A stretch of DNA of 64,000 nt from an uncultured Opitutaceae bacterium (GTDB lineage Bacteria > Verrucomicrobiota > Verrucomicrobiia > Opitutales > Opitutaceae), in contig OX638348.1 of the NCBI GenBank assembly GCA_951813085.1, positions 627,627 through 691,626 of the forward strand, written 5' to 3'. The notes under the pieces are model-generated. The model did no database searches. It saw only the letters and a list, made by a program, of their open reading frames with translations, and had not been told where the DNA came from. This document shows, piece by piece, positions 1-64,000 of this stretch (positions are counted from its first letter, which is position 1; every line of letters begins with the position of its first letter). A program made the translations under genes and the position numbers.

Positions 1-2
1 AA

Positions 3-647
3 GCAGCCGATAAAATAAAGCAAGCGGGTGGAGAATGCGTTGCGAAGGGTGGAAATGCGAGCGAACCAAGTTTCGTGGCGTCCCTTGTGGAGGAGGCCGT
101 GGAGCGCTATGGCGCAATTGACATAGCCGTAGCGAATGCGGGGGTCACTGCTTATGGGGCTTTTCTCGACTATACCGAAGAGCAATTCGAGACGCTTGTG
201 TCCCTCAATTTGCGGGGTTCATTTTTCTTAGCGCAGCAGGCGGCGATCTGTATGAAAAAGCAGAATACCGGAGGACGCATCGTGTTGATGTCATCCGTAA
301 CGGGCCATCAATCCCATCCCTATTTAGTTCCTTATGGAATGACAAAAGCGGCCCTGCGCATGCTCGCGAAGGGACTTGTCGGTGAACTGGCCCCGTTTGG
401 GATAACCGTCAATGCCATATCTCCGGGCGCTGTGCTGACGGAACGAACGACGGGTGACGATCCCGAATTCGAGGAAGGATGGTCCAAGGCAACCCCCAAT
501 GGTCGAGTTGCGACCGTAGAGGATATAGCCAATGCAGCGCTTTTCCTCGTATCCGACAAAGCTCGCCACATAAATGGCCACACCTTGCTTGTCGATGGAG
601 GGTGGACCGCGACGAGCGCGGTGCCCACGCTGAATATACCAGACTAA
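3..647 (+). CDS. Short-chain dehydrogenase/reductase (SDR) family oxidoreductase, 5' end cut by window edge
   Basis: The reading frame is open from position 3 with no stop before the ORF-track M at 75. Sequence has the SDR catalytic-region pattern (…MSSVTGHQSHPYLVPYGMTKAAL…ISPGAV…) and no N-terminal Rossmann GxxxGxG, so the N-terminus lies upstream of the window. Stop is TAA. Confidence 0.8.
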   Translation, partial: AADKIKQAGGECVAKGGNASEPSFVASLVEEAVERYGAIDIAVANAGVTAYGAFLDYTEEQFETLVSLNLRGSFFLAQQAAICMKKQNTGGRIVLMSSVTGHQSHPYLVPYGMTKAALRMLAKGLVGELAPFGITVNAISPGAVLTERTTGDDPEFEEGWSKATPNGRVATVEDIANAALFLVSDKARHINGHTLLVDGGWTATSAVPTLNIPD

Positions 648-808
648 TGCACTGGCGATTCTCGTCAAGTAAGCTGAAGCGCCTAGGCGATTGCGAAGCG
701 TGAGTAAAAACACGCCTTTTGAGGCCTAGCATTTTCGATTGCTTCTAATTCGCCGAAAGAAGGAGCGATCTTCTCGCGATAAACGAATTGCGTGGAGAAT
801 CCTGAATT

Positions 809-2025: not shown

Positions 2026-3228
2026 ATGCCAGAATCGAAGTACATTGTAGTAGGAAATTCATCCGACGATCCCTTCGCGATCGATGTCGCATTCGCGATG
2101 GGACAGGGTGAGGACATCGCGGATCTCATCAGTATGAAACGGTTTGCCAATTCCGAATTCTGTCCGCGATTCATTTCCGATGAGCAGGACTTCAAGAATA
2201 TTGGAAATAAGCTGGAAGGAAAGAGCATCATTATCGTCAGTACCAGCAGCTTGGTAATGAGTCGCCAGAGCTTGGCGATGCGGAATCTAATGATCGCGCG
2301 CGCGGCCAAGGAGAATGGGGCGGCTGAGGTGATCCTTGTAGAGCCAGATCTCTATTACAGCGCCCAGGATCGCGGGCCACGCAGAGACCTTGGCGAGACG
2401 GCGATCGTTCGCGAAGAAAAGGATCTCAAGAAATTCGATGGGCAGCTTTTTACTGCAAAACTCTACGCTCAAATGCTCAAACTCGCTGGCGTGGATCGCG
2501 TGCTGACCGTGCACAATCACTCGTTCTCAGTGCAGTCGATGTTTACGGATGTATTCGAGGGCAAGTTCCATAACCTGATTCCCTACGACATATACGTCGA
2601 TTACTTGCTGAATTCCGATATTGTCGACTATGGCGAGAAAGGAGAAGGGCTCGCCTTGTGCGCACCGGATAAGGGAGCTCGCGCGTTCGTCAAGGAGATG
2701 TTCAAGCGGCTTGGCCTTGAAAAAGCGAAATTCGTGCTGCTGGACAAGGAACGGACGAGCGAACGTCAGGTGGAAATAAAGATCCACCAAAAGAGCGAAA
2801 CTTCGCTCGAGGATATTCAGGGACATGACATCGCTCTTTTCGATGACATGGTTCGCACGGGGTCCACCGTGGTGAAATCGTGCCAGCTGCTGAAGCAGGT
2901 CAATCCGGGCAAGACGGTGTTTGCGCTCACTCACTTTTACGCAAGCGAAGAAGGTCGCGTGAAGATGGCGAATACAGCAATCGATGAAATTCTTACCTTG
3001 AATACGATTCCGACGGTCTTGAATCGGGACATTCAAGGCCGATTGAGAAAGAAGATGGTCGTACTGAAAATCGAGAAGTGGATGGCTTTGAATCTGTGCC
3101 GCATTCTAGATTTAGCCCAACCCGAGATGGGAGATAGCTTGTACGCGATCGATATGTCGTCGAAAAACACTCGCTGGAAGCGCAAGATCTGGCTGAGCGA
3201 GCAGCTCAAGAAACTGAATCCTGCCTAG
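2026..3228 (+). CDS. Ribose-phosphate pyrophosphokinase (PRPP synthetase)-like protein with about 80-aa C-terminal extension
   Basis: N-terminal Prs-like layout (…KSIIIVSTSS…NLMIARAAKENGAAEVILVEPDLYYSAQDRG…) and a PRPP-binding phosphoribosyltransferase motif (ALFDDMVRTGSTV). At 400 aa it is longer than canonical Prs (about 315 aa). Confidence 0.6.
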   Translation: MPESKYIVVGNSSDDPFAIDVAFAMGQGEDIADLISMKRFANSEFCPRFISDEQDFKNIGNKLEGKSIIIVSTSSLVMSRQSLAMRNLMIARAAKENGAAEVILVEPDLYYSAQDRGPRRDLGETAIVREEKDLKKFDGQLFTAKLYAQMLKLAGVDRVLTVHNHSFSVQSMFTDVFEGKFHNLIPYDIYVDYLLNSDIVDYGEKGEGLALCAPDKGARAFVKEMFKRLGLEKAKFVLLDKERTSERQVEIKIHQKSETSLEDIQGHDIALFDDMVRTGSTVVKSCQLLKQVNPGKTVFALTHFYASEEGRVKMANTAIDEILTLNTIPTVLNRDIQGRLRKKMVVLKIEKWMALNLCRILDLAQPEMGDSLYAIDMSSKNTRWKRKIWLSEQLKKLNPA

Positions 3229-3312: not shown

Positions 3313-6045
3313 ATGTACAGTGCTGCTCTTGCGAGCGGCCTCCCCATTACCTATACGATGACACGCTGCCTCAATCAACTGCCTCTGACGCTGCTCCGTG
3401 TGGGAGGGCTTGGAGCTATCGCCCTCTCGCGTTTCGCCGCGTCTTGCCTAGGGGTTGATGACTACAGCTTGGATCCCTCGATACGCGCCTTGGCGGCGGA
3501 TCATTGCACCTCCTGCCACAATCCGGAAAAAAGAAAAGGAAAGCTCGATTTAGAGAGCATCATCGATGACCCGATCGATGAGCATCTCGAGATTTGGGAT
3601 GAAGTGGCGTGGATGCTTAAGGAGCGGGAAATGCCTCCTGAGGATGCACCCGAAGCATCGCGCCCGAGCGAAAGCGAGTACGAGGGAGCTACCGATTGGC
3701 TGGAGGCGCAGCTTACGAAGATATTCCCCGAAGGGAACAGTAGAGAAACCTTCCTTACTTCGAAGCGCGCATTGATAAACCAGTATTGCGTCAGTTGCCA
3801 CAATCCCGAGGAAATGAAGGGCGACCTTTCGCTTGAAACTGTCGCCTTCGAAGATCCGGAAGCGAATCCAGAATTCTGGGAAACGGTGATTCGCAGGCTC
3901 GATTCGCGACAGATGCCCCCTCCCGATCGAAAGCGACCAAGCGAAGCGACATACGAAGCGGTTCTCAGTTCATTGATCGATAGCCTCGATACCCACGCCG
4001 CCGCCCATCCACAGCCGGGTCGAGTCGATACGTTTCGTCGCTTGAACCGCACGGAATACCAAAACGCGATTCGCGACTTGCTTGGGGTCGAGATTGATGC
4101 CCGTAGCTTGCTGCCTAAGGATGAAGAAAGCCATGGTTTTGACAATGTGACATTGGGGACGCTCGCGCCGAGCTTGCTGGATCGCTATATCACCGCTGCC
4201 CAGAAAGTGAGTCGGCTAGCGATTGGGCGGCCGCTATCTGCGCCTAAAGGCTATACGTATCGAATTCGCCCCGACGTAACGCAAGAGAAGCATGTAGAAG
4301 GGCTTCCTCTGGGAACTCGAGGCGGTGCGATTTTCGACTACACGTTCCCGAGGGATGGCGAGTATGAGATAGAAGCGGTCTTGACGCGCGATCGCAACGA
4401 GCATGTGGAAGGCCTAAAAGAGGAGCACGAAATGGACATCTTGCTCGGTCGAAAACTCGTAGAGCGGTTTACGGTGGCTCCTCCAGAAGGGAGACGCGAT
4501 CACAGCTTAGTGGACAAGCATTTGAAAACGCGTGTGTTCGTCGAGGCGGGACCGAAAAGCGTTGGGGTGACCTTCCTGAAAAATCCGTACTCCCTCCTGG
4601 AAAACAAGCGTCAACCCTTCAAGGCCCATTACAATCATCACCGGCATCCGCGACTGTCGCCGGCCATATACCAAGTTTCCATCACAGGACCTTTCAATTC
4701 ACCTAGAGTGGGGGATACTCCCAGTAGAAAGAAGATTTTTATCGTTCGACCCGAATCTGCGAAAGAGGAGGAACCTGCCGCGAGAACGATCCTTTCAAAT
4801 TTAATGGAGCGAGCCTTCCGGCGACCTATTTCTAAATCGGATTTGGAGCGGCCTCTGAAATTCTATCGCGACGGCGCGGAGGAAGGGGGATTCGAATCAG
4901 GAATCGAAGCAGCGCTCAATTCCATCCTCGTTAGCCCAGAATTCTTATTCCGAATTGAAAAAGAACCCAGGACTATTGCGGCAGGCGACGCCTATCGCAT
5001 AAGCGACATTGAGCTAGCGAGTCGAATGTCGTTTTTTCTATGGAGCAGCTTGCCGGATGAGGAACTCCTCGATTTGGCGATCGAAGGAAGGCTGAGCGAT
5101 CCGGAAAATCTCAACGCTCAAGTGGCCCGTATGCTGCCCGATGACCGTTCTCGAAATTTAGTAGAGAATTTCGCGGGCCAGTGGCTGCACTTGAGGAATC
5201 TGGAAGCGATCGTTCCGGATTTGCGTTTGTACCCGGATTTCGATGACAATTTGAGGCAAGCTTTCTGGAAGGAAACGGAGCTATTCGTAGAAAGCGTACT
5301 GCGCGAAAACCGTAGCGTCCTGGATTTGCTGAAGTCCGACTACACCTTTCTAAATGAACGCCTGGCCCAGCATTATGAAATTCCGGGCATTTTTGGAAGC
5401 GGCTTCCGTCGCGTCCCTCTCAAGCCAGAGTACCACCGTGGCGGGCTATTGAGGCAGGGGAGCATTTTGACGGTCACTTCATATGCAACTCGGACGTCGC
5501 CCGTCATTCGAGGGAATTGGGTGTTGGAGAATATACTGGGAACTCCAGCTAAGCCTCCTCCTCCAGATGTCCCTGCGTTGGAGGACAACAAGGTGGATGC
5601 TAGCTTGCCGATGCGAGAACGACTGGCGGAGCATCGAGCAAATCCAGCGTGCGCGAGCTGCCATGATCTCATGGATCCCGTCGGTTTCGCTTTGGAAAAT
5701 TTCGATGCGGTGGGACGCTGGCGCGTCTATGAGAACGGAGCCGAGATCGACGTGAGTGGAGGGCTCCCAGATGGAAGCGTTTTCGCAGGAGTGGAGAGCC
5801 TTGAAAATGGCCTCCTAGAGCGCCCTGAACTTTTCGTTCGCGCATTGACGGAGAAACTGCTAATATTCGCGCTCGGTAGGGGAGTTGAACCCTTCGACGC
5901 CCCTGCCGTTCGAAAAATTGTAAGTGACTCAAAACAAACGGATTACCAATTTTCATCAATCATCGAAGGGATCGTAAAGAGCGTCCCTTTTCAGATGAGA
6001 ACGAAACTCCCCAGCGATCGCTACCTTTCTCAAACCTCAGAATAG
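3313..6045 (+). CDS. DUF1592/DUF1595/DUF1587-family protein (planctomycete-type PSCyt/PSD domains)
   Basis: 910 aa. Two CxxCH-like motifs near the N-terminus (CTSCHNPEK, CVSCHNPEE) followed by the long conserved region typical of this family. Immediately followed by a DUF1552 partner gene. The true start may be the internal M of MTRCLNQLPLTLL… (signal peptide). Confidence 0.7.
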   Translation: MYSAALASGLPITYTMTRCLNQLPLTLLRVGGLGAIALSRFAASCLGVDDYSLDPSIRALAADHCTSCHNPEKRKGKLDLESIIDDPIDEHLEIWDEVAWMLKEREMPPEDAPEASRPSESEYEGATDWLEAQLTKIFPEGNSRETFLTSKRALINQYCVSCHNPEEMKGDLSLETVAFEDPEANPEFWETVIRRLDSRQMPPPDRKRPSEATYEAVLSSLIDSLDTHAAAHPQPGRVDTFRRLNRTEYQNAIRDLLGVEIDARSLLPKDEESHGFDNVTLGTLAPSLLDRYITAAQKVSRLAIGRPLSAPKGYTYRIRPDVTQEKHVEGLPLGTRGGAIFDYTFPRDGEYEIEAVLTRDRNEHVEGLKEEHEMDILLGRKLVERFTVAPPEGRRDHSLVDKHLKTRVFVEAGPKSVGVTFLKNPYSLLENKRQPFKAHYNHHRHPRLSPAIYQVSITGPFNSPRVGDTPSRKKIFIVRPESAKEEEPAARTILSNLMERAFRRPISKSDLERPLKFYRDGAEEGGFESGIEAALNSILVSPEFLFRIEKEPRTIAAGDAYRISDIELASRMSFFLWSSLPDEELLDLAIEGRLSDPENLNAQVARMLPDDRSRNLVENFAGQWLHLRNLEAIVPDLRLYPDFDDNLRQAFWKETELFVESVLRENRSVLDLLKSDYTFLNERLAQHYEIPGIFGSGFRRVPLKPEYHRGGLLRQGSILTVTSYATRTSPVIRGNWVLENILGTPAKPPPPDVPALEDNKVDASLPMRERLAEHRANPACASCHDLMDPVGFALENFDAVGRWRVYENGAEIDVSGGLPDGSVFAGVESLENGLLERPELFVRALTEKLLIFALGRGVEPFDAPAVRKIVSDSKQTDYQFSSIIEGIVKSVPFQMRTKLPSDRYLSQTSE

Positions 6046-7412: not shown

Positions 7413-8942
7413 GTGAGCCCCATGACCGGACAACGTTGCGCATCTCTCGATCACCTTCTTGGAAGATGGCTTTGGTCCATCGCGTTTGGAATTTCGATCA
7501 TTTGCAACTCGGTGCTGCATGCCGGCGAAAGCGCGGTAGCGAATGCGATAGAACTGGGCTCCTTCGATCACGCAGCGAAGTTGATTGAAAATGGCGCAAG
7601 CGTTTCCGCATCCCAAGCGGATGGAATGACGCCGCTTCACTGGGCCGCTCGTCACGGAGATGTTGAACTATCAAAGCTCCTCCTTTCCAAGGGAGCGGAT
7701 CCCGCGGTGGAGAATCGATATGGGATCGCGCCGCTTTACCTCGCATGCGTCAATGGCAACGCGGAATTGACTGCGGCATTGTTGGCTGCAGGCGCTGATC
7801 CGGAAACGGCGATTAGAGGGGGTGAAACTGCGTTGATGACGGCGTCACGTACGGGAGATCTTGATACGGTTGTGAAATTGCTGGATGCAGGAGCTGAAGT
7901 TAACGCGAAGGAACGCAAGGGCCAGACCGCTTTGATGTGGGCGGCTGCTGAAGGGCATTTGGATGTGGTCAAGCTGCTGATAGATGCAGGAGCCGATCCA
8001 GAGATAAGATTGAAGGTTTCAGGCTACACAGCGTTTTTCTTCGCCGTACGGGAAGGGCATAGCGATATCGTGCATCACTTCTTGAGCTTGGGCGCTGACT
8101 TGAGCAAACCTATGGATGCGAGCCGTTTTAATGGGACGCTGCCGAACAGGGGAACGACGCCTTTGCTTCTGGCGGTTGAGAATGGTCATTTTGACCTTGC
8201 GATTGAGTTGCTCGATTCGGGAGCGGATCCCAATGACATGACGCCTGGCTTTTCGATATTGCATGCGTTAACCTGGATTCGAAAGCCGGACATTGGCGAA
8301 TCGGCTATGGGCGCTCCCCCTCCAAAGGGATCAGGGAAACGCAATAGCGTTCAGTTTATTCGAGATTTAGTTGCCCGGGGAGCGGATGTGAATCTTCGGC
8401 GGAAATCAGGCCAACGCGCTGGCAATGGTCGCGTGAGCTTCGTCGGCGCGACTGCCTTTTTTATGGCTGCGGATCGAGCAGATCTGCCTTATATGAAGCT
8501 ACTCGTCGAGTTAGGAGCGGATCCGCATATCCCCAATGAGGATGGATCTACATCGCTTTTGGTCGCCGCAGGAGTGGGGAGCCGCGCCCCTGAAGAAGAG
8601 GCGGGTTCCGAGGAGGAATGCCTTGCAGCAGTCCAGTACTTGGTTGGCCTAGGTTCCGATGTAAATGCAGTGGACGCGAATGGCCATTCCGCGATGCACG
8701 GAGCCGCGTTGAAGAATATTCCTTCTATGGTTCACTACTTGAATGCGCAGGGCGCCGATGTCGGTATCTGGAATCGAAAAAATAGCGATGGCTGGACACC
8801 GCTTCTAATCGCCGAAGGCTACCGTCCTGGAAATTTCAAGCCTTCGTTTGCCACCGTAGATGCGATATCGGAAGTAATGATTGCAAATGGAACGCCGATA
8901 CCAACCGATCCTAAGCCAAAGCATACCAACTACGCGAACTAG
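7413..8942 (+). CDS. Ankyrin-repeat protein, secreted
   Basis: Multiple ANK repeats (GMTPLHWAARHGDVELSKLLLSKGADP…, GQTALMWAAAEGHLDVVKLLIDAGADP…, GTTPLLLAVENGHFDLAIELLDSGADP…). Hydrophobic N-terminus. Starts 11 bp after the DUF1552 stop. Confidence 0.8.
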   Translation: MSPMTGQRCASLDHLLGRWLWSIAFGISIICNSVLHAGESAVANAIELGSFDHAAKLIENGASVSASQADGMTPLHWAARHGDVELSKLLLSKGADPAVENRYGIAPLYLACVNGNAELTAALLAAGADPETAIRGGETALMTASRTGDLDTVVKLLDAGAEVNAKERKGQTALMWAAAEGHLDVVKLLIDAGADPEIRLKVSGYTAFFFAVREGHSDIVHHFLSLGADLSKPMDASRFNGTLPNRGTTPLLLAVENGHFDLAIELLDSGADPNDMTPGFSILHALTWIRKPDIGESAMGAPPPKGSGKRNSVQFIRDLVARGADVNLRRKSGQRAGNGRVSFVGATAFFMAADRADLPYMKLLVELGADPHIPNEDGSTSLLVAAGVGSRAPEEEAGSEEECLAAVQYLVGLGSDVNAVDANGHSAMHGAALKNIPSMVHYLNAQGADVGIWNRKNSDGWTPLLIAEGYRPGNFKPSFATVDAISEVMIANGTPIPTDPKPKHTNYAN

Positions 8943-8959: not shown

Positions 8960-11900
8960 CTACGTGGAAAGAGATCTTGTATCCTCAGAAGAGGTGTCGT
9001 CTTTTCTGAATACGAATTGAATGTATCCAAAGAATCGCACGCGCAGGTCATCGAATAGGGTATAGAACAAGGGGACGACCAGAAGGGTGAGAATGGTTGC
9101 GGTGAGCATTCCTCCCATCATAGCGCGGCCGAGTGGCGAATAGGATACATCCATCATTTTCGTATCACCCATGGACATAGGGATCATTCCGAAAATGGTT
9201 GTGAGCGACGTCATCCATATCGGACGAAAGCGCCGTTTGCAGGCTTCTACGATTGCATCCATCCGCTTAAGCCCTTCCGCGCGGAGCCGCGTTATGAGGT
9301 CGATAAGGACAATCCCGTTATTCACGACGACGCCAAGCAATATGATTGTACCGATTGTCGCCATAATATTGAAGCTGGTTCTCGTTAGGTAGAGCGTCCA
9401 CACGACTCCAACGCCGGCGAGAGGCATCGTTAGGAAAATGGAGAAGGGTAAGATGAATGACTCGAACATCGCTCCCATCAAAAGAATGATGAATACGATA
9501 ATCATTATGAGTGTGAATGTGAATGTTTCGTTGGTTTCCTGCATTTGCCGATACTGGCCGCCCTTGTCCCAACGGTAGCCTCGTGGAAACTCCAAGCCCT
9601 TCATAACGGCATCCGTGCGTTGGAACAGCGCCTTTGAGTCTTTTTCCGTGGCGATTCCCTGAACTCTCATGATCGTCTTGCGATCTTGGCGACGTATGCT
9701 GCGCGATCCGGCTTCGTAGGACAGCGTTGCGAGCGATTCGAGGGGAACGAGAGTACCGTCATTCCCTTCGAACGTCAGTCGTTGCACGTGGGCGACGCTT
9801 TCTCGATCACTTTCATCGAGCCATATGCGAATCCGGCTGCGGCGACCATTGTCATCATAATAGTAGCCGACGATATTGCCTCGGATCGCATAGGATATGG
9901 CTCCCGATATCGCCTGCGTCTGTATGCCGAAGTGATTGGCCCTTTCCCTGTCTAGAATGATGTTCATTTCCTGGCGCTGCATGTCCTCATCCGTTTCCAC
10001 TGCAACGAGGCCTTCCACGGTTCGTAGACGACGCTCTACTTCCTGGCTTAGGGACTTGAGCGTTTCGGTGTCATCGCCGTATAGTGTAACGTTGAAGACT
10101 TTGGTGGGGTCCTGATCTTTGGCGTTGAAACGGAGTTGGGCTCCTGGAGGCGTTTCAATCTTTTCACGGAGATCTTCGATTATTTCTTGGCGCGTCAAAT
10201 GCGGATTGTCCCATAGTCCGATCGACCCCATTAGCGATTGATAGCCTGTTACGTACCATGGTTTCACTGCTTCGTCGAATTGGAGTTCAATGTTTCCTTC
10301 CGACGCAGTATAGAACGAGGAGTAGGTATCGAAGTTATATCTCTCCTTCTCTGAATCCAAATGCTCGTAGACGGTGTGGAAGTATCGTTCGATGGTTTCG
10401 AGCGACTGCCCCCCGGGAAACTCGTACCGCAATCTGACGTCCTGAGGGCCGCCGGCTCCGAGATCTTTGCCGATGTTTTGAAACGGAACGGCTATCGATA
10501 GCCCGATAAGAGCCATCAGTATTATTGATGCATAGCTTCTTTGCCTTAGGGTCCAGCGAAGCATTCCCAGGTAGAACTGCGCAATTCTCGAATTGGATTC
10601 GGTTCCATTTTTCGTATTTACTCTCTCGTTAAATACTTTTGTAGCCAACGGTATTAGAAGGAGGGCAATGAGTAGAGAGGCGATTAGGCTTAGCATGACC
10701 GGAACGCCAATTCGAAGGAGCCAGAATTGAAGTTCATCTCCTTCCCCCATGAGGATGAGAGGGAGAAAGACGACGATCGTAGTCAGGGTAGCCAGCGTTA
10801 TTGCCATGCCCATTTCGCTGGCTCCGAGAAGAGATGCTTTACTTGGATTCAATCCCAGTTGCCTCTTAACGTGTATGTTCTCTACAATTACAATTGAATT
10901 GTCGACGACGAGTCCAACGCTCAGCAAAAGCCCCATCATCGTCGCCATGTTAAGCGACCATCCCAGGAAATATAAGGCTATGATGGACGCTAGGATCGAA
11001 AGCGGAATCGCGAGCATGATCGTTATTGTCATCTTCGCGGAACGCAGAAACAGGAATAGGACGATAACTGAAAAAAGCCCGCCCCAAAGGCCGGCATTCT
11101 TCAGATTGTTGACCGACTCCGTTACATGTTTTCCTTGATTCCAAAACACATGGAATTTAACGGAGTCTAATTCGGGCAATGCTTCCAGCTCGTTCAATGC
11201 GGCAACGACGTCTTCACAAACCTGGACGATATTCGCTCCGGATGACCGCGTAATCTCGATACCGTAGCTTCGATCCCTTTCTAAAGCAAAGACGCGCCAG
11301 GTATCTTCCGGCTCCGGATCAATCGTTGCGATGTCGCCTAGGAAAAGCCCTATATCCGTATCTACGGGAATCGTATTGAATGTCTCGAGATCGGGAATGC
11401 GACCGACGGAACGTACGAAAAGCTCCCGATCGGATTCTTCAACCAGTCCGGCGCTCAGGTTAAAATTTTGATTGTTCAATGTGGCCGCCAAGCGCGCGAC
11501 GCTTATGTTGTGGGCTTTGACCTTGTCGTGATCGAGTTCGATGCGGATCTCGCGTCCACGAACTCCATTCATCTCAACGTTGCCCACTCCATTGATACGT
11601 TGAAGAGCAGGGAGAATGTACCGATCCGATGCGTAATCGACGTCCACCTTGCTCTCATCGATCGACATGGCCGCAAAGAGTATGGGTATGTCATTGGCGC
11701 TAAACTTGTAGACGTTGATTTGCTCTACTTCGTCAGGAAGCTCAGGCATAACGCGATCCATGCGGTCGCGAACATTCGCGTATGCTTCGCTGATATCGAT
11801 CCCTCGATGAAACGTAACAAATACTTGAGAATACGATTCTCGGGAGATGGCAGTGATGCGATCGATTCCTGGAACGGTTCCAAGCCCTTCTTCGACTTTT

Positions 11901-15696: not shown

Positions 15697-16824
15697 CTAG
15701 CCTTCGCTGGGTCGCGACTGGTTGGACGTCTCCGCATTTCGAACCGATAGGCTATCGTCGACAATCTTTACCTTCGCGCCATCTTTCAGGGCATTGTGAC
15801 CGAGGATAATGATCGATTCGCCCTCATCCAGGCCATTGAGCGATTCGATGCGATCGCTATTCGCGTATCCAGGATGAAACTCTGTCTTTTCGGCGATGGC
15901 ATCTTTCACTTTGTAAATGTACATTTTCTCTCCTTCGTGAACGATTGCTGCCTTGGGTATGATCACTGCATCGGGTTTCGTATCCAACACGATCCTAACG
16001 GTCACGAACATCCCGGGATAAATAGGGGTCGCGCTGTTGTGGTCTACAGCGACCTTAACATTGAAGGTACCGCTGGCAGAGTCGATAGCTGGGCTGACAA
16101 GCTTCACTTCGGCATCATACGATACGCCCTCGATAATTTCAGAGACAATTTCCGATTTGAGACCTTTCTGGATGTGTAGCATATGCTGCCCAGGAATGTT
16201 CACCTGAGCGAAAAGCTCGTCCATATTTAGGAGCGAGAAAAGCGCATTGCTTCCTGAAACCCGTTCTCCTTCTTGAGTGAGTCGCTTTGAAATAACTCCG
16301 GAAACAGGAGCTCGGACTTTCGTGTCCTCTAAACGGATACGGGAGCGCTCGTAGTTGATCTCCGCCTGCTCTAGATCGAAAAGCTCGGTATCGTATTCTT
16401 GTTGATTGATCAGGCTTCGATCAAACAGGTCCTGAGTCCTCTGAAATTTAGATTGCAGATGCTGATAGCGCGAAAGGGACTCCTTGACGTTAACTTGCTC
16501 TTCTTCGTTTTCGAGTTGAGCGATTATTTGTCCAGCCTCGACCGCATCGCCAACCTCGGCGAGCACTTCAACGACGAGTCCAGTGGATTCTGGGAAAATC
16601 TCAACGGCGCTTTCGGTTTCAAGAATCGAGTCGAACTCAAGGAAAGAAGAAATTTCACCGCGTTCAGCGGTTGCAACCTTTACGGGAATTTCGGTGACGA
16701 CTTCCTTCTCTTCCGAATCGGCTTTCGCGTCCTTGCCGTTACCTGGCGAATCTCCTACTTTCCCGCAACTCACGAGGATGATGCAGGCCAAGGAGGCGAT
16801 AAAGATTCGATAGAGGGTTTTCAT
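15697..16824 (-). CDS. RND efflux periplasmic adaptor (membrane fusion protein, HlyD/MdtA-like), lipoprotein
   Basis: Lipoprotein signal (…LACIILVSCGK). Coiled-coil plus beta-barrel MFP layout. First gene of the MFP-RND-RND operon on the minus strand. Confidence 0.85.
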   Translation of the reverse strand: MKTLYRIFIASLACIILVSCGKVGDSPGNGKDAKADSEEKEVVTEIPVKVATAERGEISSFLEFDSILETESAVEIFPESTGLVVEVLAEVGDAVEAGQIIAQLENEEEQVNVKESLSRYQHLQSKFQRTQDLFDRSLINQQEYDTELFDLEQAEINYERSRIRLEDTKVRAPVSGVISKRLTQEGERVSGSNALFSLLNMDELFAQVNIPGQHMLHIQKGLKSEIVSEIIEGVSYDAEVKLVSPAIDSASGTFNVKVAVDHNSATPIYPGMFVTVRIVLDTKPDAVIIPKAAIVHEGEKMYIYKVKDAIAEKTEFHPGYANSDRIESLNGLDEGESIIILGHNALKDGAKVKIVDDSLSVRNAETSNQSRPSEG

Positions 16825-23099: not shown

Positions 23100-23119
23100 G
23101 GTAGTGTCCTAATTTGAAT
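23100..23119 (+). repeat. Terminal inverted repeat, left copy (overlaps the transposase stop codon)
   Basis: 20/20 match to the reverse complement of 25571-25590. Confidence 0.7.
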
Positions 23120-54591: not shown

Positions 54592-57129
54592 CTAGCGCGC
54601 TCGTTGCTTTTGGAGCTTTTTAAGTTCCTTGTTTTCTAGATCTCGAATGAGAGTGGTGTAGGTTACGTCCGTGTCGAAAACCTTAAGGGTAACGGAGCTT
54701 CCTTCAGATACGGGCAGCGTGTATTCAATTTCTTTTGTCGATTCGTTGACGAGCTGAACATTGGTGGCTCCGCGAGGTATCTCGATCTTGGGTAGATGAC
54801 CTGCCGCTTCGCGTCCATATTGCGCTTCCAACGGGATGGTATGGGGCCAGCCGAGATACTGTCCGCGATTTTTCCTGGGGGTCCAATTGGTGTCGGGTCC
54901 CCAGTTCTCGACGGTTGATTCGAATGTCTTTGTATTGAATCGAACGATACCGTAGCCGCTACCGCTGCCCTGCAATCGTACGAACATTGAACTGTCCGTA
55001 GGCTCGAAATTGGGATTGATCGTGTCGGGGCGGTTGTTGACGGCCCATACATTCACCTTGTTCTTGAAGCCGTCGAGAAACTCACCGGTGTACTCGGGGG
55101 CGCCAGGTTGGCGATTCTTCCCGGGTTCGAGCGGGTCCCAGAGCCGCTTGTAGCCGTTGGCGATGCCTGGAGGGGCGAAGGACCAGCCAGAGTCATTCCA
55201 GTCATCCACTCCCTGGTGGGTCAAGGTGCCGACGTGCTGATCGCCATGAACCATGATGGCGTGGGCGCGGCGAATGGACTTCAAAGCGCGGTTCCGACCG
55301 CTCTGTGGCCACCCGTTCGAGTCGAGGTCGGCTGCCAGTCGCCCGTTGTAGGATCCATGCGTGGTGGCGACGGAACCGAAAGGCGTTTGCGAAAGGACGG
55401 CTTTCATCTTGTCGCCTTTCCAATTAGTGGTCCAGTGATCGAGGAATGTGAGCTGGCGATCGCCGAGAAGCTTGAGTCCGGGCTTGTCGACCAGACGCGT
55501 ATCGAATTCTGGATCGGTCACATGATCGATGCGCCCTTGTCCGCCCACGGGTTCATCAAGCGCATCGCCAGGAGCGGACTTGAACTTGCGGTCCTCCAGA
55601 ATGGCGAAGCTGACGCCCCCCACCGTGAGTTCTGTGTAGTAGACGGTGATCCCCTGTCTCACAGGCGTGGGGTTGAAGGGGTCGGGAAGGTGGGAGACCT
55701 GGGTGCGCTGAACCATGTTGACCCACTTTGGGTGCATATTGTATCCGCCAAAGCTGCTGGTGGTTTTGGCCACCTTTGGCATAGCGGCGCCGCCTTGCCC
55801 CCAGATATTGCCGTGATAGACGTCATGATCGTCGGGGATAATGACGGAGGGGCGATCCTTGAGCACTTCGCGAAAGCTCCAGCCGAAGAGCCAGTACTTT
55901 TGCAGATAATTTAGGGCGGCCCTAGGGATGTCCGCTTCGGAATGCGTGCGCACAACGCCGTAGCCCGCGACGCTTTCGTAAATCTGGTCGCCGGCGAAGA
56001 ATACCAGGTCCGGATTTTGGGCGTGTACGCTTTCGGCGATGTATTGATTGGGGAATGCGTAGTCGTGCATGCAGGACATGGCAGCGAGCGTGATCTCTTC
56101 CTGATCCATTGGGTCCCGACGTATGCGTCCGTCCCAATGATCGGTGACATCGCCAGAGCCGATGGCGTAGTCGAAGCTGAGGCGGTATTCGGTGTCGCGT
56201 TCGCTATTCCATTCTTCAATGCGAAAATGTGCGGTACGGGAAAGGGGGTCTATGGCTCCGCGCGCTGCAGGCTTCCAGGTGTCGCCATCCTTCAATGACA
56301 GTATAACAACCTTGTTTTCTCCAGAACCCACAGGGGCGACATGTGCGGTCATTTTCATGATGTCATCATGTAGCGTGTACTGCGACCAGAGAATGGGGCC
56401 GAAGCGTTGATCGTCCTTGGAGGCGATCTTTCTACCGGACACCTTCCAGTCGCTGAACCAGAAGCGAAAGTCGCCATTGGACCCGGTGCGTCGGGAGGCA
56501 TTCGATTGACCGCTATTGTCGATTGGCCCCGCGAATAGGCCGATATTGCCGATGAGCGGGTCGCTTTTTACCGTGGCGGAGAATTCAGCCAATACATCTC
56601 TGGATCCTGAGCCACGCCGCGCTTCAATCGTCACATTGGCGTTGGTTCCGCGACATTGGATCTCGACGTCCAGCTGTACGTTTTCGAGGAGAGAGGGATC
56701 GAGAGCGGCTTGGGAAAAGTGGCTACCGATAAAGAGCTTACCTTCTGTGGTGATGCCCGCGTTGACTCCCGAGCTACTGAATAAATTGGATCGATATTCC
56801 TCGGGCATCGCTCCGGTTACGGCAAAGCGAAAACCGACGGCGCCCATCCCGTTCTCATCGGAATGATCGCAGAGGGCTCCCGCCCGAACGCTCATCGTGA
56901 AGGAGCCGTTGCCGGGCTTCATCTGGTGCGTGAGCAGCTGGATGTCGTGCCCGCGCCCGCCTTGCACGATTTCGATGCGTCCATTGGAAACTTGCCAATC
57001 CATCATGGGTGTGGACCAGATTTCGGGGGCGATCCAAGGTCGGGTTACGGAATCGGGCAAATCCAATGAGTAGTCGTCCGCGAAAGCGAGCGATGGGAGG
57101 GCTAGGAGAAGAAGCGATAGTTTGCGCAT
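54592..57129 (-). CDS. PhoD-like alkaline phosphatase family protein, secreted
   Basis: Start set at the ATG of MRKLSLLLLALPSLAFA (57127-57129). The ORF-track N-terminal extension is Arg-rich junk. Calcineurin-like motifs are present (…DDHDVYHGNIWGQGG…). Confidence 0.75.
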   Translation of the reverse strand: MRKLSLLLLALPSLAFADDYSLDLPDSVTRPWIAPEIWSTPMMDWQVSNGRIEIVQGGRGHDIQLLTHQMKPGNGSFTMSVRAGALCDHSDENGMGAVGFRFAVTGAMPEEYRSNLFSSSGVNAGITTEGKLFIGSHFSQAALDPSLLENVQLDVEIQCRGTNANVTIEARRGSGSRDVLAEFSATVKSDPLIGNIGLFAGPIDNSGQSNASRRTGSNGDFRFWFSDWKVSGRKIASKDDQRFGPILWSQYTLHDDIMKMTAHVAPVGSGENKVVILSLKDGDTWKPAARGAIDPLSRTAHFRIEEWNSERDTEYRLSFDYAIGSGDVTDHWDGRIRRDPMDQEEITLAAMSCMHDYAFPNQYIAESVHAQNPDLVFFAGDQIYESVAGYGVVRTHSEADIPRAALNYLQKYWLFGWSFREVLKDRPSVIIPDDHDVYHGNIWGQGGAAMPKVAKTTSSFGGYNMHPKWVNMVQRTQVSHLPDPFNPTPVRQGITVYYTELTVGGVSFAILEDRKFKSAPGDALDEPVGGQGRIDHVTDPEFDTRLVDKPGLKLLGDRQLTFLDHWTTNWKGDKMKAVLSQTPFGSVATTHGSYNGRLAADLDSNGWPQSGRNRALKSIRRAHAIMVHGDQHVGTLTHQGVDDWNDSGWSFAPPGIANGYKRLWDPLEPGKNRQPGAPEYTGEFLDGFKNKVNVWAVNNRPDTINPNFEPTDSSMFVRLQGSGSGYGIVRFNTKTFESTVENWGPDTNWTPRKNRGQYLGWPHTIPLEAQYGREAAGHLPKIEIPRGATNVQLVNESTKEIEYTLPVSEGSSVTLKVFDTDVTYTTLIRDLENKELKKLQKQRAR

Positions 57130-57130
57130 T

Positions 57131-58741: not shown

Positions 58742-60169
58742 ATGAAAACTCGCTTGCTACCCTTTTTGGCGTTGATCGCCGCCTCATTCACTGCCGCCGC
58801 TGAGCGCCTCAATATCGTGCTCATACTTACCGATGACCAAGGGTACGCGGATATCAGCTTCAACCCCGAGCATCCCAAGGAAGTGAACACGCCGCACATG
58901 GATGCATTGGCCCAGGAGGGCATATTCTTTACGCAGGCTTATACCAGTGGCCCGGTTTGCTCACCGACGCGGGCGGGTTTGATGCTCGGGCGCTACCAGC
59001 AGCGCGTAGGCGTTTACACAGCGGGCGACGGAGGGTCTGGCTTCGATCCTGAATTGCCGATTTTTCCCGGGTTTCTCCCAGAGGAGTACACCTCGACGGC
59101 GATTGGGAAATGGCACTTGGGGCTCGACAATGACTACCCCGAATTGAAATGGCACGCCGTGAGCCGGGGATTCGACGAAAGCTACAAGTTCATGGGCCGA
59201 GGCGGGCACGACTATTTTGAGCTGAAAGGAGTCAATAGCGACGACTACGCTCCCATTTACCGCAACAAGGACCGCGTTGCCCCGGAGGATTATGAAGGGT
59301 ATTTGACGACACGTCTTACCGAGGAAGCGGTGGATTTCATTGGCCGCGAGAGGGACAACCCCTTCTTTCTCTATCTTGCCTACAATGCTGTCCATGCGCC
59401 TGCTCAAGCGCCACGCGAAGATATTGACCACTACAAGAATAAGTATCCAGGCATTAGTGACAAGCGAGCGATCTTGATGGCGATGCTCTATCATCTAGAC
59501 GAGGGTGTAGGAGCTGTAGTAGGAAAACTGAAGGAAGAAAAGGTGTGGGGCAATACGCTCCTGTTCTTTCTGACGGACAATGGCGGCTCGAAAGCGATGG
59601 AAGCGAATAACGGATCTCTGCGTGGGTTTAAGCAAAACCTATATGAAGGAGGCATTCGCACTCCATGGATCGTTACTTGGCCGGAGAAATTCAGCGGCGG
59701 ACGAAAAATTGATACGCCAATTATATCCATCGATATCCTCCCTACGGTACTTGATGCTCTCGGAATCGATGGTCCAAAGGAAACACCCTTTGACGGAAAA
59801 AGCATACTGCCGATCATTAGTGGAAAATCGGATACGCATCATGCGGAAATGTACTGGAATAGCGGAGGGTCTAAGGGAGAGTGGGCGGTAAGGCAAGGCG
59901 ACTGGAAAGCGCATGGGTTCAAGGAAAAGTTTACGCTCTTCAATCTCAAGGACGATCCCTCCGAGACTAGGGATGTATCGATAGACAACTCAAGGAAAGC
60001 GAATGAGCTCTTCGCTCTTCACGCGAATTGGCTCGAGGAAATGAAGCGTTCGGAGAATGGTGGAAAGCTTCCGGTCGAAGCAGGAACGCAGCTATCGAAG
60101 GCGGAACGAAGGGCGCAGAATAGGGCTGAAAATGAAAAACGGCGTGCGGAACGAAGGGCCCAACAATAG
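58742..60169 (+). CDS. Sulfatase (arylsulfatase-family), secreted
   Basis: Signal peptide, C-x-P-x-R sulfatase signature (CSPTRAGLMLGRY), 475 aa, intact. Confidence 0.85.
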   Translation: MKTRLLPFLALIAASFTAAAERLNIVLILTDDQGYADISFNPEHPKEVNTPHMDALAQEGIFFTQAYTSGPVCSPTRAGLMLGRYQQRVGVYTAGDGGSGFDPELPIFPGFLPEEYTSTAIGKWHLGLDNDYPELKWHAVSRGFDESYKFMGRGGHDYFELKGVNSDDYAPIYRNKDRVAPEDYEGYLTTRLTEEAVDFIGRERDNPFFLYLAYNAVHAPAQAPREDIDHYKNKYPGISDKRAILMAMLYHLDEGVGAVVGKLKEEKVWGNTLLFFLTDNGGSKAMEANNGSLRGFKQNLYEGGIRTPWIVTWPEKFSGGRKIDTPIISIDILPTVLDALGIDGPKETPFDGKSILPIISGKSDTHHAEMYWNSGGSKGEWAVRQGDWKAHGFKEKFTLFNLKDDPSETRDVSIDNSRKANELFALHANWLEEMKRSENGGKLPVEAGTQLSKAERRAQNRAENEKRRAERRAQQ

Positions 60170-60275: not shown

Positions 60276-61874
60276 ATGAAACTACCCCTATCTTTGCTCG
60301 CTCTGTTTTTGGTCGGTTCCCTATTCGGCCAGAATGAACGTCCTGTCCCTCCGACTCCAACCCATGCGGATGTGGCCTATGGAGACCATTCGCAGCAGGT
60401 AATCGACTTTTGGAGGGCGGATGTAGGCGGACGAGGCCCGCTTGCGATCTATATCCATGGTGGTGGATTCACGGGTGGTAGCAAGCGCAGCATCAATGCG
60501 CGAGCGGTGAATCAGTTGCTGGAGGCAGGAATACATGTCGCGTCTGCGGAGTACCGTCTGCTTAAGCACGCTCGACTTCCCGCGGCCCACGAGGACGTTG
60601 CTCGGGCATTGCAATTCATCCGTTCCCAGGCACGGGAGTGGGGCGTAGATACCCAGCGAATTGGAGGGTTTGGAGGATCCGCTGGAGCTCAACTAGTAGC
60701 CTATTTAGCGTTCCACGATGATATGGCGGATCCAGATAGCGATGACCCGATCGCCCGCCAGTCGACGCGATTGACCTGCGTGGCGCCGAACGGGATTCAA
60801 TCCACCATGGACCTGAACTGGTGGGTTGAAAACATTCCTGGCTACAATGAAGTGCATACAAACCCCACGGGCTACTTCAACGCCGAGGGAGATGCCTTAG
60901 TCAAGGCCGCTCAAGAGGTTTCGGTGATCAACCATATTACTCCAGACGATCCCCCCGTTTTCCTCAGCTTCAACATGGCGCCCGATTCGCCGATTCCGTC
61001 CGATCCGAAGCGGAAGCGGGCCTGGATGATCCATCATGTCAATTTCGGGATCGCCTTGAAGGAAACCCTCGATGCTGCAGGTGTGGAGGTGGATCTGAAA
61101 TACCCAGGCGCGAGCACGCGCTACCCATCCAATGTGGAATTTCTAATCGATAAGCTAGCCTGGAAGGGCGAGCGAACCCTTTACGAGGATTATGAGCCCC
61201 ATGTTTTCAGGAATGGTGACGATGAGATCGCCTACCAGCTATTGAAACCGCGCGATTTCGATCCGCAGAAGACCTACCCATTGGTGCTATTCCTTCATGG
61301 AAGCGGTGGGCGCGGTCCGGGCAATATTCGCAATCTAACGGACGCGGACGTGCCGGCGAAGTTGGCGACTGATTCGATTAGCGGAACGCATAATGCCTTT
61401 TATCTCGTTCCGCAGTGCCCCGCTCCCAACACCTGGGCGGATGCCCCATGGATGAAGCGATCTTCCAGTCCGCGCCCCAGCAAGCAGTCCGCGCTCTATG
61501 CGCTCGTGGACAGCATCGTGGCATCCAATGCCATCGACACGAGCCGACTCTATGTCACGGGTTTGTCGATGGGGGGATTCGGCTCCTTTAGCGCGGTAGC
61601 GACGCGGCCCGATTTCTGGGCGGCAGCGGCCCCGGTTTGCGGGGGTTGGCGACCGGAGGACGCGTCGTTGTTTACGAGCACTCCTATGTGGCTTTTTCAC
61701 GGAGATGCCGACAAGGCGGTGGATGTCCAATACTCGCGCGATATGAACGAGGCGATCCGCAAGAAAGGTGGAAATATTCAATATACGGAGTATGCCGGAG
61801 TCGGCCACAATTCCTGGCTCAACGCCTATTGGGAACCGGAGCTCTGGAACTGGATGTTCGCTCAGAAGCGCTAG
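60276..61874 (+). CDS. Secreted tandem alpha/beta-hydrolase (two esterase/carboxylesterase-like domains)
   Basis: Signal peptide. First domain has HGGGF and GxSxG (GGFGGSAG). Second domain has GLSMGG and the C-terminal H of a phospholipase/carboxylesterase-like fold. Confidence 0.75.
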   Translation: MKLPLSLLALFLVGSLFGQNERPVPPTPTHADVAYGDHSQQVIDFWRADVGGRGPLAIYIHGGGFTGGSKRSINARAVNQLLEAGIHVASAEYRLLKHARLPAAHEDVARALQFIRSQAREWGVDTQRIGGFGGSAGAQLVAYLAFHDDMADPDSDDPIARQSTRLTCVAPNGIQSTMDLNWWVENIPGYNEVHTNPTGYFNAEGDALVKAAQEVSVINHITPDDPPVFLSFNMAPDSPIPSDPKRKRAWMIHHVNFGIALKETLDAAGVEVDLKYPGASTRYPSNVEFLIDKLAWKGERTLYEDYEPHVFRNGDDEIAYQLLKPRDFDPQKTYPLVLFLHGSGGRGPGNIRNLTDADVPAKLATDSISGTHNAFYLVPQCPAPNTWADAPWMKRSSSPRPSKQSALYALVDSIVASNAIDTSRLYVTGLSMGGFGSFSAVATRPDFWAAAAPVCGGWRPEDASLFTSTPMWLFHGDADKAVDVQYSRDMNEAIRKKGGNIQYTEYAGVGHNSWLNAYWEPELWNWMFAQKR

Positions 61875-61990
61875 AGCCGACGCCCAGGAGCGCGGCCCGG
61901 TCTTGCGAAAGGGCGGAAACTTCCCTTAGCTGCTGTCCATTCGCCATTTTCCCAAGGGAAATAGGGTGACCTCTCGTTGAGGAAAGTAAT

Positions 61991-64000
61991 ATGCCCACCC
62001 ACCAGCATCGCCCCTTTGCTTCGATAGCTCCGAAGAGCGCTCTCTTCGGCACGGCGATTTTTTGGGTGGCGGCAGCCTCTTTCGGGGAGGAACCGCTCGA
62101 TTTCAATCGCGACATCCGACCCCTCCTTTCGGATAACTGCTTCAAGTGTCATGGTCCGGATGAGGAATATCGCGAGGCGGGCCTTCGTCTGGACACGGAG
62201 CAGGGCTCCTTTGCAGACCTAGGGGAAGGGTATTTCGCAATTGTTCGCGGCGATCCAGACCGCAGCGAGCTGGTCTGGCGAATTACTGCGGATGACTCGG
62301 AAGATATCATGCCGCCCGAGGATTCCGGACTTTCGCTGTCAGGAGAGGAAAAAGAGCGCTTGCAGCGATGGATCGCCGAGGGTGCCTCATGGAGCCAGCA
62401 TTGGTCTTTCGAGCCGGTGACGCGGCCGGACTTGCCTGAGACGAGCGATCCCGACTGGGGTCGTAACGAGATCGATGCCTTTACCCTGGCGCGGATGGAT
62501 GCGGAGGGGCTGGCTCCGTCACCCGAGGCGGACCAGACGACCTTGATCCGTCGCGTGACGCTTGATTTGACGGGGCTTCCGCCCACGCCAGAAGAAGTGG
62601 ACGCGTTCTTGGCGGATGAGGCGGACGACGCCTACGAGCGGCTCGTAGATCGATTGCTGGAGTCGCCGCGGTATGGAGAAACGATGGCCCTTCCTTGGCT
62701 CGAGGCGGCCCGCTATGCGGATACGGATGGCTACCAGAACGATGGCCCGCGGGACATGTGGCGCTGGAGGGATTGGGTAATCGAAGCTTACAATCGGAAT
62801 TTGCCATTCGATGCCTTTACCATTGAGCAGCTAGCGGGTGACTTGCTGGAGAATCCGACTCTCGAACAGGTTATCGCCACCGGCTTCAATCGCAATCACC
62901 GCTACAATTCCGAGTCCGGCTTAGTGCCGGAGGAATTCCTGCTTGAGAATGCGGTAGATCGCGTGGACACCACGTCGACCATTTGGATGGGGATGACCAT
63001 GGGCTGCGCCCGTTGCCACGATCACAAGTACGATCCGATATCGACGAAAGAGTACTATCAGCTGATATCCTTTTTTGACAATGTAACTGAGACCGGGCGG
63101 GCGATCAAATTTGGCAATTCGGAGCCTTGGATTAGGGCTCCGACGAGAGAACAGGAGAAGCGTCTCTCTCAGTTGGACGAAAAAGTAGCCGATACCAAAG
63201 CGCGTCGAGATAAGGCCCGCTCGCAAATACAGGAGTGGATCGTGTCCGGCAGTATGGGGGATGCTCTCGTAGACGAAGCTCGATTTCTTTCTCGCGGATT
63301 GATGGAGCGTTATTCCTTCGATGAAGGAGAGGATCTTGAACTTGAAGACGATGCGGAACCGACTTATAGCGATGGCGTTTTCGGGCGGGGAGCGCGGTTT
63401 ACAGGAGACAACTTCCTAGTGATCGAAAGCGACTTTGGCTATCTATGTCATGAACGATTTAGTCTTTCGTTTTGGTTGAATCCAGATGATGTATCCAGCG
63501 GAACGATACTTTCCAAACAAAAAACGAATTCAACCCGGCCAGGCATGGCGATCGAGCTCGTAGACGGAAAGCTGCAATTCGATATCATGACACGTTGGAT
63601 CGCGGGAGTGGGACGCGTACGATCCCTGGCCGATATACCGACGAATGCCTGGACGCATGTGACATTGACAAACGACGGGACACAGCGAGCTGGTGGAATG
63701 AGTATCTACTTAAATGGCCGCCTTGCTGAATCCGAAATTTTGTTCAACACGAACAGCAATGTCGTTAAGACTCCCACAACTGCTAAGCTTCGCATTGGCA
63801 AGGGAGTCGTGGGAGATCCTTTCAAGGGAGCGATCGATGAGCTGCGCGTGTACGATCGGACTCTGTTTCACGATGAGGTGGCAGTATTGGCGACCCCCGA
63901 GCCCATTCGTGGCATCGTGTACAAGCGGACTGTGGATCTTAGCCCACAATCGATCGCTAAGCGAAATGCCTACCTCTTGGAAAACCTGGCGCCTGAACCC
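61991..64000 (+). CDS. DUF1549/DUF1553-family protein (planctomycete PSCyt/PSD domains) with a LamG-like region; 3' end beyond window
   Basis: Translated by hand: ATG at 61991, no stop through 64000 (about 670 codons). Absent from the ORF track because it runs off the window. N-terminal CxxCH-like DNCFKCHG, then the conserved DUF1549 block (…WSFEPVTRPDLPE…DAFTLARM…) and DUF1553-like block (…MGCARCHDHKYDPIS…). Confidence 0.8.
   Translation, partial: MPTHQHRPFASIAPKSALFGTAIFWVAAASFGEEPLDFNRDIRPLLSDNCFKCHGPDEEYREAGLRLDTEQGSFADLGEGYFAIVRGDPDRSELVWRITADDSEDIMPPEDSGLSLSGEEKERLQRWIAEGASWSQHWSFEPVTRPDLPETSDPDWGRNEIDAFTLARMDAEGLAPSPEADQTTLIRRVTLDLTGLPPTPEEVDAFLADEADDAYERLVDRLLESPRYGETMALPWLEAARYADTDGYQNDGPRDMWRWRDWVIEAYNRNLPFDAFTIEQLAGDLLENPTLEQVIATGFNRNHRYNSESGLVPEEFLLENAVDRVDTTSTIWMGMTMGCARCHDHKYDPISTKEYYQLISFFDNVTETGRAIKFGNSEPWIRAPTREQEKRLSQLDEKVADTKARRDKARSQIQEWIVSGSMGDALVDEARFLSRGLMERYSFDEGEDLELEDDAEPTYSDGVFGRGARFTGDNFLVIESDFGYLCHERFSLSFWLNPDDVSSGTILSKQKTNSTRPGMAIELVDGKLQFDIMTRWIAGVGRVRSLADIPTNAWTHVTLTNDGTQRAGGMSIYLNGRLAESEILFNTNSNVVKTPTTAKLRIGKGVVGDPFKGAIDELRVYDRTLFHDEVAVLATPEPIRGIVYKRTVDLSPQSIAKRNAYLLENLAPEP

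Follow-up and report, generated by a model that had tools for sequence, protein, structure and literature searches.

TAG-majority stop-codon usage in a 64 kb window of a marine Verrucomicrobiota genome and in related lineages

TAG is the most frequent terminal stop codon in the 64 kb stretch of contig OX638348.1 analysed here (hereafter the window, meaning the whole stretch), where it ends 22 of the 36 genes with Pfam support, the remainder ending in TAA (10) or TGA (4). The window has a GC content of about 53% and, to judge by the relatives of its proteins, derives from a marine Verrucomicrobiota genome. As far as orthologous regions allow comparison, the inversion of stop preference is real and common to the related lineages sampled, representing an unusual genomic bias for which we infer a cause linked to translation termination. 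Our preferred reading, to which a probability of about 0.55 is given, is that the lineage combines the standard genetic code with an inverted stop preference (TAG about 55-60%, TAA about 30% and TGA 10-15% in the sampled regions) maintained by selection at termination.

Surveys of 644-736 genomes described TAG usage as flat with respect to GC and the codon as 'unpreferred' (Povolotskaya, 2012, PMC3549826; Ho and Hurst, 2022, PMC9348620), and the analysis of 4,684 genomes by Korkmaz (2014), in the portion quoted in PMC4989110, has TAG as the minor stop 'in all these phyla'. By a published regression (Wei, Wang and Xia, 2016, PMC4989110), UAG is expected to exceed UGA only where the AT content at third codon positions (AT3) is above 0.71, a pattern tied to release factor 1 (RF1) exceeding release factor 2 (RF2). 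Mutational, selective and release-factor models are in dispute over the rarity of TAG in bacteria and its indifference to GC (PMC3549826, PMC4989110, PMC8789281, PMC9348620). The clade described here contradicts both the generalisation of TAG as the minor bacterial stop and the AT3 > 0.71 regression for UAG > UGA.

Stop-codon usage in the window and its relatives

When three open reading frames (ORFs) backed only by syntenic orthologues were added to the Pfam-supported set, the 39 genes gave TAG/TAA/TGA counts of 23/12/4 (TAG 59%), and greedy selection of non-overlapping ORFs gave 27/19/8 at a length of at least 100 amino acids (aa) and 25/14/5 at 150 aa or more. The probability of observing at least 22 TAG among 36 genes is 8e-8 for a true share of 20% and 1e-3 for a share of 35%. 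The excess of TAG over TGA (22:4) is likewise significant (binomial p = 5e-4), and no strand effect was seen in the 36-gene set, with 11 TAG codons on the plus and 11 on the minus strand. A preliminary description of this DNA had put the counts at about 26/12/4 (about 60% TAG), which the 23/12/4 of the supported genes bears out, and all of its examples of TAG-ending genes were recovered: the resistance-nodulation-division (RND) pumps, HlyD, Era, the GMC oxidoreductase, flotillin, TetR, the PhoD-like pair, the sulfatase and the IS1-like ORF. Its remark that TGA normally dominates at this GC content is a simplification, as in bacteria either TAA or TGA can be the dominant stop. Its claim that the skew is abnormal agrees with the published surveys, in which TAG is low and unpreferred.

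Stop codons were also counted in called genes of related lineages. These comprised an estuarine population (L003; pyrroloquinoline quinone (PQQ) dehydrogenase 85% identical, GC 53%, TAG/TAA/TGA 5/3/2), the metagenome-assembled genome (MAG) GCA_028284235.1 (L015 and L020; PQQ dehydrogenase 82%, Era 68%, GC 56-57%, 10/3/6), the marine L017 and L021 (Era 69%, syntenic, GC 48%, 7/5/2 each), L022 (Era 72%, the closest from another lineage; GC 48%, 8/3/3) and L023 (GCA_041166445.1; Era 67%, GC 50%, 8/5/1). L020 is syntenic with the window, RND operon and SpoIIE gene included. In each of five related lineages (Era 67-72%, mostly syntenic) TAG accounts for 50-57% of stops, and the complete genes of the clade, pooled with those of the window, gave 59 TAG, 29 TAA and 16 TGA (57/28/15%). 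The outgroups, namely Puniceicoccaceae bacterium K14 (L019; 3/8/5), L001 (0/2/3) and L014 (0/4/3), together carried three TAG among 28 genes, and the difference between in-clade relatives and outgroups was significant (Fisher p = 1.5e-4). With the window statistics and five related lineages alike, the sampling fluke that the preliminary description had named as the alternative is excluded, and the TAG preference is a property of the lineage, as far as the sampled regions show.

Genetic code, base composition and the cause of the bias

Orthologues on related contigs end 0-14 residues from the window proteins despite carrying different stops, as found for the ankyrin-repeat gene, HlyD and era (TAG/TGA), SpoIIE (TAA/TAG) and the RND pumps (TAG/TAA/TGA); because ends are shared while stops differ, TAG is a terminator and the stops have undergone turnover instead of representing frozen ancestry. 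Past the end of TAG-terminated genes, a further stop in the same frame is usually reached within about 4-48 codons, a spacing like that of random sequence, the long exceptions being neighbouring genes that happen to be in the same frame. TGA terminates as well: it ends four Pfam-supported window genes, orthologues use it at shared ends, and it is absent in frame from ORFs as long as 1192 codons that Pfam matches cover in full. This distribution does not fit the UGA-reassigned codes (tables 4 and 25), which would show in-frame TGA where Trp or Gly is conserved and no TGA terminators. UAG recoding would leave in-frame TAGs at functional sites shared among orthologues, and no such TAGs were found. 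Within the 64 kb window there were no pylTSBCD genes, no tRNA with a CUA anticodon and no selenocysteine (Sec) machinery. Judged by these orthologue comparisons, the code is the standard bacterial one (table 11), with TAG and TGA both functional as stops. A sense or read-through function of TAG was rejected, orthologue ends being shared and the in-frame TAGs missing from most orthologues.

An artefact, in the form of either a window sampling fluke or a sense or read-through TAG at which ORFs are cut, is accordingly very improbable indeed. Three in-frame TAGs in two otherwise conserved genes, together with several adjacent genes sharing a frame across a TAG, are what such an artefact might leave behind, yet the probability of the counts stays at most 1e-3 even at a true TAG share of 35%, five related lineages agree, the spacing to the next stop is random-like and, where the window has TAG, TAA or TGA follows the same final residue in orthologues. 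Moreover, the in-frame TAGs are missing from most orthologues and one lies in a frameshifted stretch, and that both point lesions should be TAG has a chance of about 0.19, since of the codons that a single substitution would turn into a stop, about 44% are neighbours of TAG. The depleted codon is TGA (4/36 in the window, 15% clade-wide), which would suit a second role of UGA (selenocysteine, low-level Trp or Gly decoding, or early reassignment), TGA being avoided and TAG taking its place with rising GC; reduced Verrucomicrobiota endosymbionts that have lost prfB are known to read UGA as Trp (PMC8204192; PMC13462651). Such a role nevertheless appears improbable, given that TGA ends genes in every relative as well as in the window, at orthologous ends, that the longest ORFs lack it in frame, and that the window holds no Sec machinery and a single tRNA, with a GAU anticodon.

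Base composition would predict the opposite skew. TAG and TGA are identical in base content, and away from real stops TGA outnumbers both TAA and TAG: background TAA/TAG/TGA counts in the window are 143/184/359 in frame +1, 103/83/294 in frame +2 and 145/171/215 in intergenic DNA. For 36 genes this background predicts 8.3/9.3/18.4 stops against the 10/22/4 observed (chi-square p = 5e-7), and the TAG skew is not compositional because off-frame and intergenic triplets are TGA-rich, predicting about 9 TAG and 18 TGA. The off-frame shares of the clade (23/22/55% TAA/TAG/TGA) resemble those of the outgroup L019 (29/22/49%), which has the same mix and yet ordinary stop usage. A compositional cause was rejected on these triplets and the outgroup comparison. 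Sequence context was considered too and is unsupported, with no +4 or -1 preference, no excess of tandem stops and one TAGATG junction only.

The strong mutational bias invoked in the preliminary description, whereby neutral substitution yields TAG over TGA and stops follow, is thus disfavoured, and we regard it as unlikely. Window codons one substitution from TAG (2297) do outnumber those one substitution from TAA (1752) or TGA (1223), and stop-like triplets just 3' of bacterial genes trend as real stops do (Ho and Hurst, PMC9348620); against this, TAG is not enriched in any non-stop context, where TGA is always commonest, L019 combines an equal off-frame mix with ordinary stops, and the skew holds over a GC range of 48-57%. 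Much the same standing is given to historical carry-over, in which an AT-rich, TAA-rich and TGA-poor ancestor gained GC with TAA-to-TAG changes exceeding TAA-to-TGA changes, so that the present pattern would be a non-equilibrium relic. TGA-poor low-GC genomes do exist, Flavobacterium johnsoniae having 7% RF2-specific stops (PMC12421855), and the clade spans 48-57% GC. Among orthologues that share about 60-90% protein identity, stops nonetheless vary, implying ample turnover, yet each lineage has 50-57% TAG, and the asymmetry between TAA-to-TAG and TAA-to-TGA would still require a termination-linked cause.

Of the explanations offered in the preliminary description, an altered RF2/RF1 balance or a strong mutational or selective bias, the mutational one has lost ground, and selection tied to termination, through the RF1/RF2 balance, is what would remain. 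The TAG excess and TGA deficit are specific to real stop sites, and neither stop turnover nor the spread in GC among the lineages has erased them. Selection acting on termination would favour the RF1-only codon UAG and disfavour the RF2-only codon UGA, possibly owing to an RF2 that is scarce or weak by comparison with RF1, to high RF1, or to leaky UGA termination. This mechanism would correspond to the 'codon-decoder adaptation' of Wei et al. (2016), operating at a third-position GC content (GC3) where it is not expected: UAG exceeds UGA (22 vs 4 in the window, 59 vs 16 in the clade), as in their model, at a GC3 of 0.603 in window genes, that is, an AT3 of 0.40 instead of above about 0.71. Several points weigh against selection at termination. 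No +4 or -1 nucleotide preference was seen, nor were back-up stops after TGA or tandem stops in excess, both on small numbers; these missing signals weaken the case because selection on termination efficiency might produce them. Furthermore, the regions sampled in the relatives are for the most part orthologous and syntenic, which means that the genes are not independent samples, and Ho and Hurst argued that release-factor abundance is not needed to account for bacterial stop usage generally (PMC8789281, PMC9348620).

A stronger version, which we advance only tentatively, is that this is a free-living clade of intermediate GC with a modified termination apparatus, in which RF2 is weakened, down-regulated or altered, or a ribosomal or tRNA change makes UGA leaky, so that UAG is preferred. 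If true, it would be the first case in nature of a bacterial lineage that ends most of its genes in TAG, would put the release-factor account of the 'TAG paradox' directly to the test, and might represent an early step to UGA reassignment without AT pressure or genome reduction.

Gene-by-gene stops, disrupted genes and the setting of the window

The terminal stops of the 39 supported genes and the three in-frame TAGs are collected in Table 1.

Table 1. Terminal stop codons and in-frame TAGs of the window. Stops were read from the window sequence; genes were called by Pfam unless stated otherwise.
Codon	Position	Strand	Gene	Remarks
TAG	3226..3228	+	phosphoribosyltransferase/PRPP-synthetase-like, 2026-3228	L017/L021 orthologues TAG
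TAG	6043..6045	+	PSD/PSCyt multidomain, 3313-6045	orthologues TAG
TAG	8940..8942	+	ankyrin-repeat, 7413-8942	same end residue in orthologues: TAG (L017/L021), TGA (L020/L022)
TAG	8960..8962	-	RND pump, 8960-12115	Pfam ACR_tran; orthologues TAG (L020), TAA (L022)
TAG	12116..12118	-	RND pump, 12116-15694	TAGATG, ATG of next pump directly after; orthologues TAA/TGA
TAG	15697..15699	-	HlyD-type membrane-fusion, 15697-16824	same end residue, TGA (L020), TAG (L022)
TAG	17827..17829	-	conserved 126-aa ORF, 17827-18207	no Pfam match; L020/L022 orthologues 70% identical, TAG
TAG	19311..19313	+	era, 18297-19313	orthologues TGA (L017, L021, L022), TAG (L019, L020), C-terminal offsets matching; L023 TAG
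TAG	20612..20614	-	M28 peptidase, C-terminal ORF, 20612-21181	L017/L021/L022 TAG at same residue
TAG	23109..23111	-	IS1-like transposase ORF, 23109-23777	weak DDE_Tnp_IS1 match, under curated cut-off
TAG	27398..27400	+	short-chain dehydrogenase, 26585-27400	
TAG	31269..31271	-	flotillin/Band 7, 31269-32732	
TAG	33407..33409	-	gluconate 2-dehydrogenase subunit 3-like, 33407-34060	
TAG	34062..34064	-	GMC oxidoreductase, 34062-35918	
TAG	42606..42608	+	disrupted PQQ-dependent dehydrogenase, 40455-42608	L003/L015 orthologues TAG, ends 0-2 residues apart
TAG	42655..42657	-	zinc-type alcohol dehydrogenase, 42655-43626	
TAG	44337..44339	+	TetR regulator, 43701-44339	
TAG	47416..47418	+	SMP-30/gluconolactonase-like, 46312-47418	
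TAG	50407..50409	+	GFO/IDH/MocA oxidoreductase, 48988-50409	
TAG	52000..52002	-	PhoD-like, 52000-54555	
TAG	54592..54594	-	PhoD-like, 54592-57519	next PhoD-like gene 12 codons on, same frame
TAG	60167..60169	+	intact sulfatase, 58742-60169	
TAG	61872..61874	+	esterase/alpha-beta hydrolase, 60276-61874	
TGA	30288..30290	-	SprA-related, 30288-30977	
TGA	37164..37166	+	CNNM/CBS, 36045-37166	
TGA	44916..44918	+	glycine-zipper, 44460-44918	
TGA	47430..47432	-	mandelate racemase/enolase-family, 47430-48677	
TAA	645..647	+	short-chain dehydrogenase, 75-647	5' end beyond window
TAA	1208..1210	-	conserved ORF, 1208-1840	called from L017/L021 orthologues, also TAA
TAA	7400..7402	+	DUF1552, 6056-7402	orthologues TAA
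TAA	17011..17013	-	TPR, 17011-17772	orthologues TAA or TGA
TAA	19328..19330	-	PAS/SpoIIE phosphatase, 19328-20584	orthologues TAG
TAA	22020..22022	-	conserved ORF, 22020-22976	called from L017/L021/L022 orthologues, TAG
TAA	28053..28055	-	xylose-isomerase-like TIM-barrel, 28053-28970	
TAA	29987..29989	+	EamA transporter, 28988-29989	
TAA	32756..32758	-	NfeD-like, 32756-33328	
TAA	46200..46202	+	DUF4432, 45081-46202	L003 orthologue TGA
TAA	50824..50826	-	short sulfatase ORF, 50824-51849	341 aa, possibly truncated
TAA	57691..57693	-	short sulfatase ORF, 57691-58614	307 aa, possibly truncated
in-frame TAG	21368..21370	-	M28 peptidase, 20612-22130	column Glu (GAA) in intact 468-aa L017 orthologue; same-frame flanks well conserved
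in-frame TAG	41886..41888	+	PQQ dehydrogenase, 40455-42608	inside locally frameshifted stretch of about 20 codons
in-frame TAG	42129..42131	+	PQQ dehydrogenase, 40455-42608	variable linker; homologue residues vary at column

The preliminary description had offered the TAG dominance as the backdrop against which in-frame TAGs should be read, an idea that the alignments do not support: one of the three belongs to a frameshifted stretch, two look like point lesions, and the orthologues are mostly intact. In the PQQ-dependent dehydrogenase, which carries an inserted cytochrome c domain, the TAG at 41886 falls where another frame reads KLVPDQEQSAPPPSE, as in homologues, and the frameshifted stretch lies between two mutually compensating indels, which are close to runs of AAAA and GGGG/CCC. 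At 42129 both other frames are full of stops, and the TAG is read as a point nonsense change. Neither TAG occurs in any of 12 aligned homologues, and most homologues of 82-88% identity are intact, with lengths of about 660-780 aa, as are the genes of L003 and L015; the gene would be either a recent pseudogene or, as regards the indels, affected by homopolymer sequencing errors. The C-terminal ORF of the M28 peptidase is 84% identical to its L017 orthologue, and orthologues are intact at 461-468 aa in L017, L021, L022 and L023. With its conserved flanks, the TAG at 21368 is best taken as a point nonsense lesion, and the inactivation looks very recent. On these alignments the in-frame TAGs are lesions specific to the window, or sequencing errors in the case of the indels, unrelated to the TAG bias and not a sign of recoding.

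Two of the three sulfatase genes are short (341 and 307 aa, compared with 475 aa for the neighbouring intact one), tblastn alignments stop near residue 340-355, the one between the 341-aa ORF and the intact sulfatase near residue 341 of 475, and both are probably truncated; together with the PQQ dehydrogenase and M28 genes, four pseudogenes in 64 kb are likely. Split genes were also observed in single samples of near-identical estuarine contigs (L004, positions 2641-2667 and 13640-13685; L008, 5407-5465), affecting a PSCyt/PSD gene whose upstream piece ends in TAG and two sulfatases whose upstream pieces end in TAA, which suggests gene-disrupting polymorphisms, nonsense or frameshift, in a wild population.

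The Pfam-identified content of the window comprises planctomycete-type PSD/PSCyt and DUF1552 proteins, the RND efflux operon, era, the M28 peptidase and flotillin/NfeD genes, in addition to genes for the GMC oxidoreductase, PQQ dehydrogenase, TetR, two PhoD-like proteins and three sulfatases. Named relatives of the Era protein were, closest first, Puniceicoccaceae bacterium K14 (66%), an unclassified Verrucomicrobiota MAG (65%), and Lentisphaeraceae and Opitutae (58%), Era scans of genomes and metagenomes returned only relatives of about 60% identity, and a PQQ dehydrogenase homologue of 76% identity carries the name 'Verrucomicrobia bacterium'. No plasmid match was obtained for 22 kb of the window.

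Within the conserved neighbourhood, gene content varies by presence or absence of the RND operon and the SpoIIE gene: the operon (8960-16824) and the PAS/SpoIIE gene are found in the window, L020 and L022 and are missing from the otherwise syntenic L017 and L021, and L023 has the operon without SpoIIE. The L023 contig (JBFPED010014047.1) is syntenic with the window, and a PQQ dehydrogenase match labelled Bryobacterales has a longest contig of likewise 45,556 bp; L023 may be a mis-binned or mislabelled MAG contig. Between 36000 and 40400 the GC content of the window falls to 48%, and four ORFs there (37502-37816, 37869-38219, 38362-39321 and 39543-40373) have no Pfam match; in the CNNM/CBS gene before them, which stops at 373 aa, no domains other than CNNM and CBS were detected. 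The segment may be an insertion. The sole tRNA of the window (25443-25529, minus strand; 87-90 nt) has a long variable arm, a shape shared with Leu, Ser and Tyr tRNAs, but its anticodon loop UUGAUAA reads Ile GAU and its first acceptor-stem pairs are unformed. It lies about 1.7 kb from the IS1-like transposase ORF and may be a tRNA that has degenerated or what remains of an integration site.

Significance and comparison with known systems

The literature consulted on TAG-dominant bacteria and on stop usage in Verrucomicrobiota and Planctomycetes yielded no TAG-majority lineage, although its coverage is incomplete and large surveys may hold unremarked outliers. The clade amounts to a natural experiment, in which the preference is inverted at ordinary GC and on a background composition resembling the one seen in a sister lineage whose stop usage is normal. 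Comparison of clade and sister with respect to prfA/prfB, release-factor abundance, readthrough and mutation spectra could separate the competing models. Gene finders and code predictors tuned to rare TAG may also mis-score such genomes.

TGA-poor genomes of the Flavobacterium type and UGA-reassigned genomes are AT-rich and TAA-dominated, the latter also lacking prfB and decoding UGA as Trp. UGA-reassigned lineages include the reduced verrucomicrobial endosymbionts Ca. Organicella and Ca. Pinguicoccus (PMC8204192). From these, from the UGA-reassigned Mycoplasmatota and from TGA-poor Bacteroidia such as F. johnsoniae, the present clade differs in its GC of about 53%, in TGA that terminates and in TAG replacing TAA as the leading stop. 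It shares with the general bacterial pattern a code and a two-release-factor system that are presumed to be the same, TAA and TGA still terminating, and departs from it in the order TAG > TAA > TGA at intermediate GC. Unlike the bacteria surveyed by Ho and Hurst, where non-stop contexts usually behave as the stops do (PMC9348620), its off-frame triplets do not mirror stop usage. The nearest parallel is with the bacteria of Wei et al. (2016), in which UAG likewise exceeds UGA under the standard code with both codons in use; their model, however, places this at AT3 > 0.71 with UAA as the main stop, whereas here AT3 is 0.40 and TAG holds the majority (57%), ahead of TAA.

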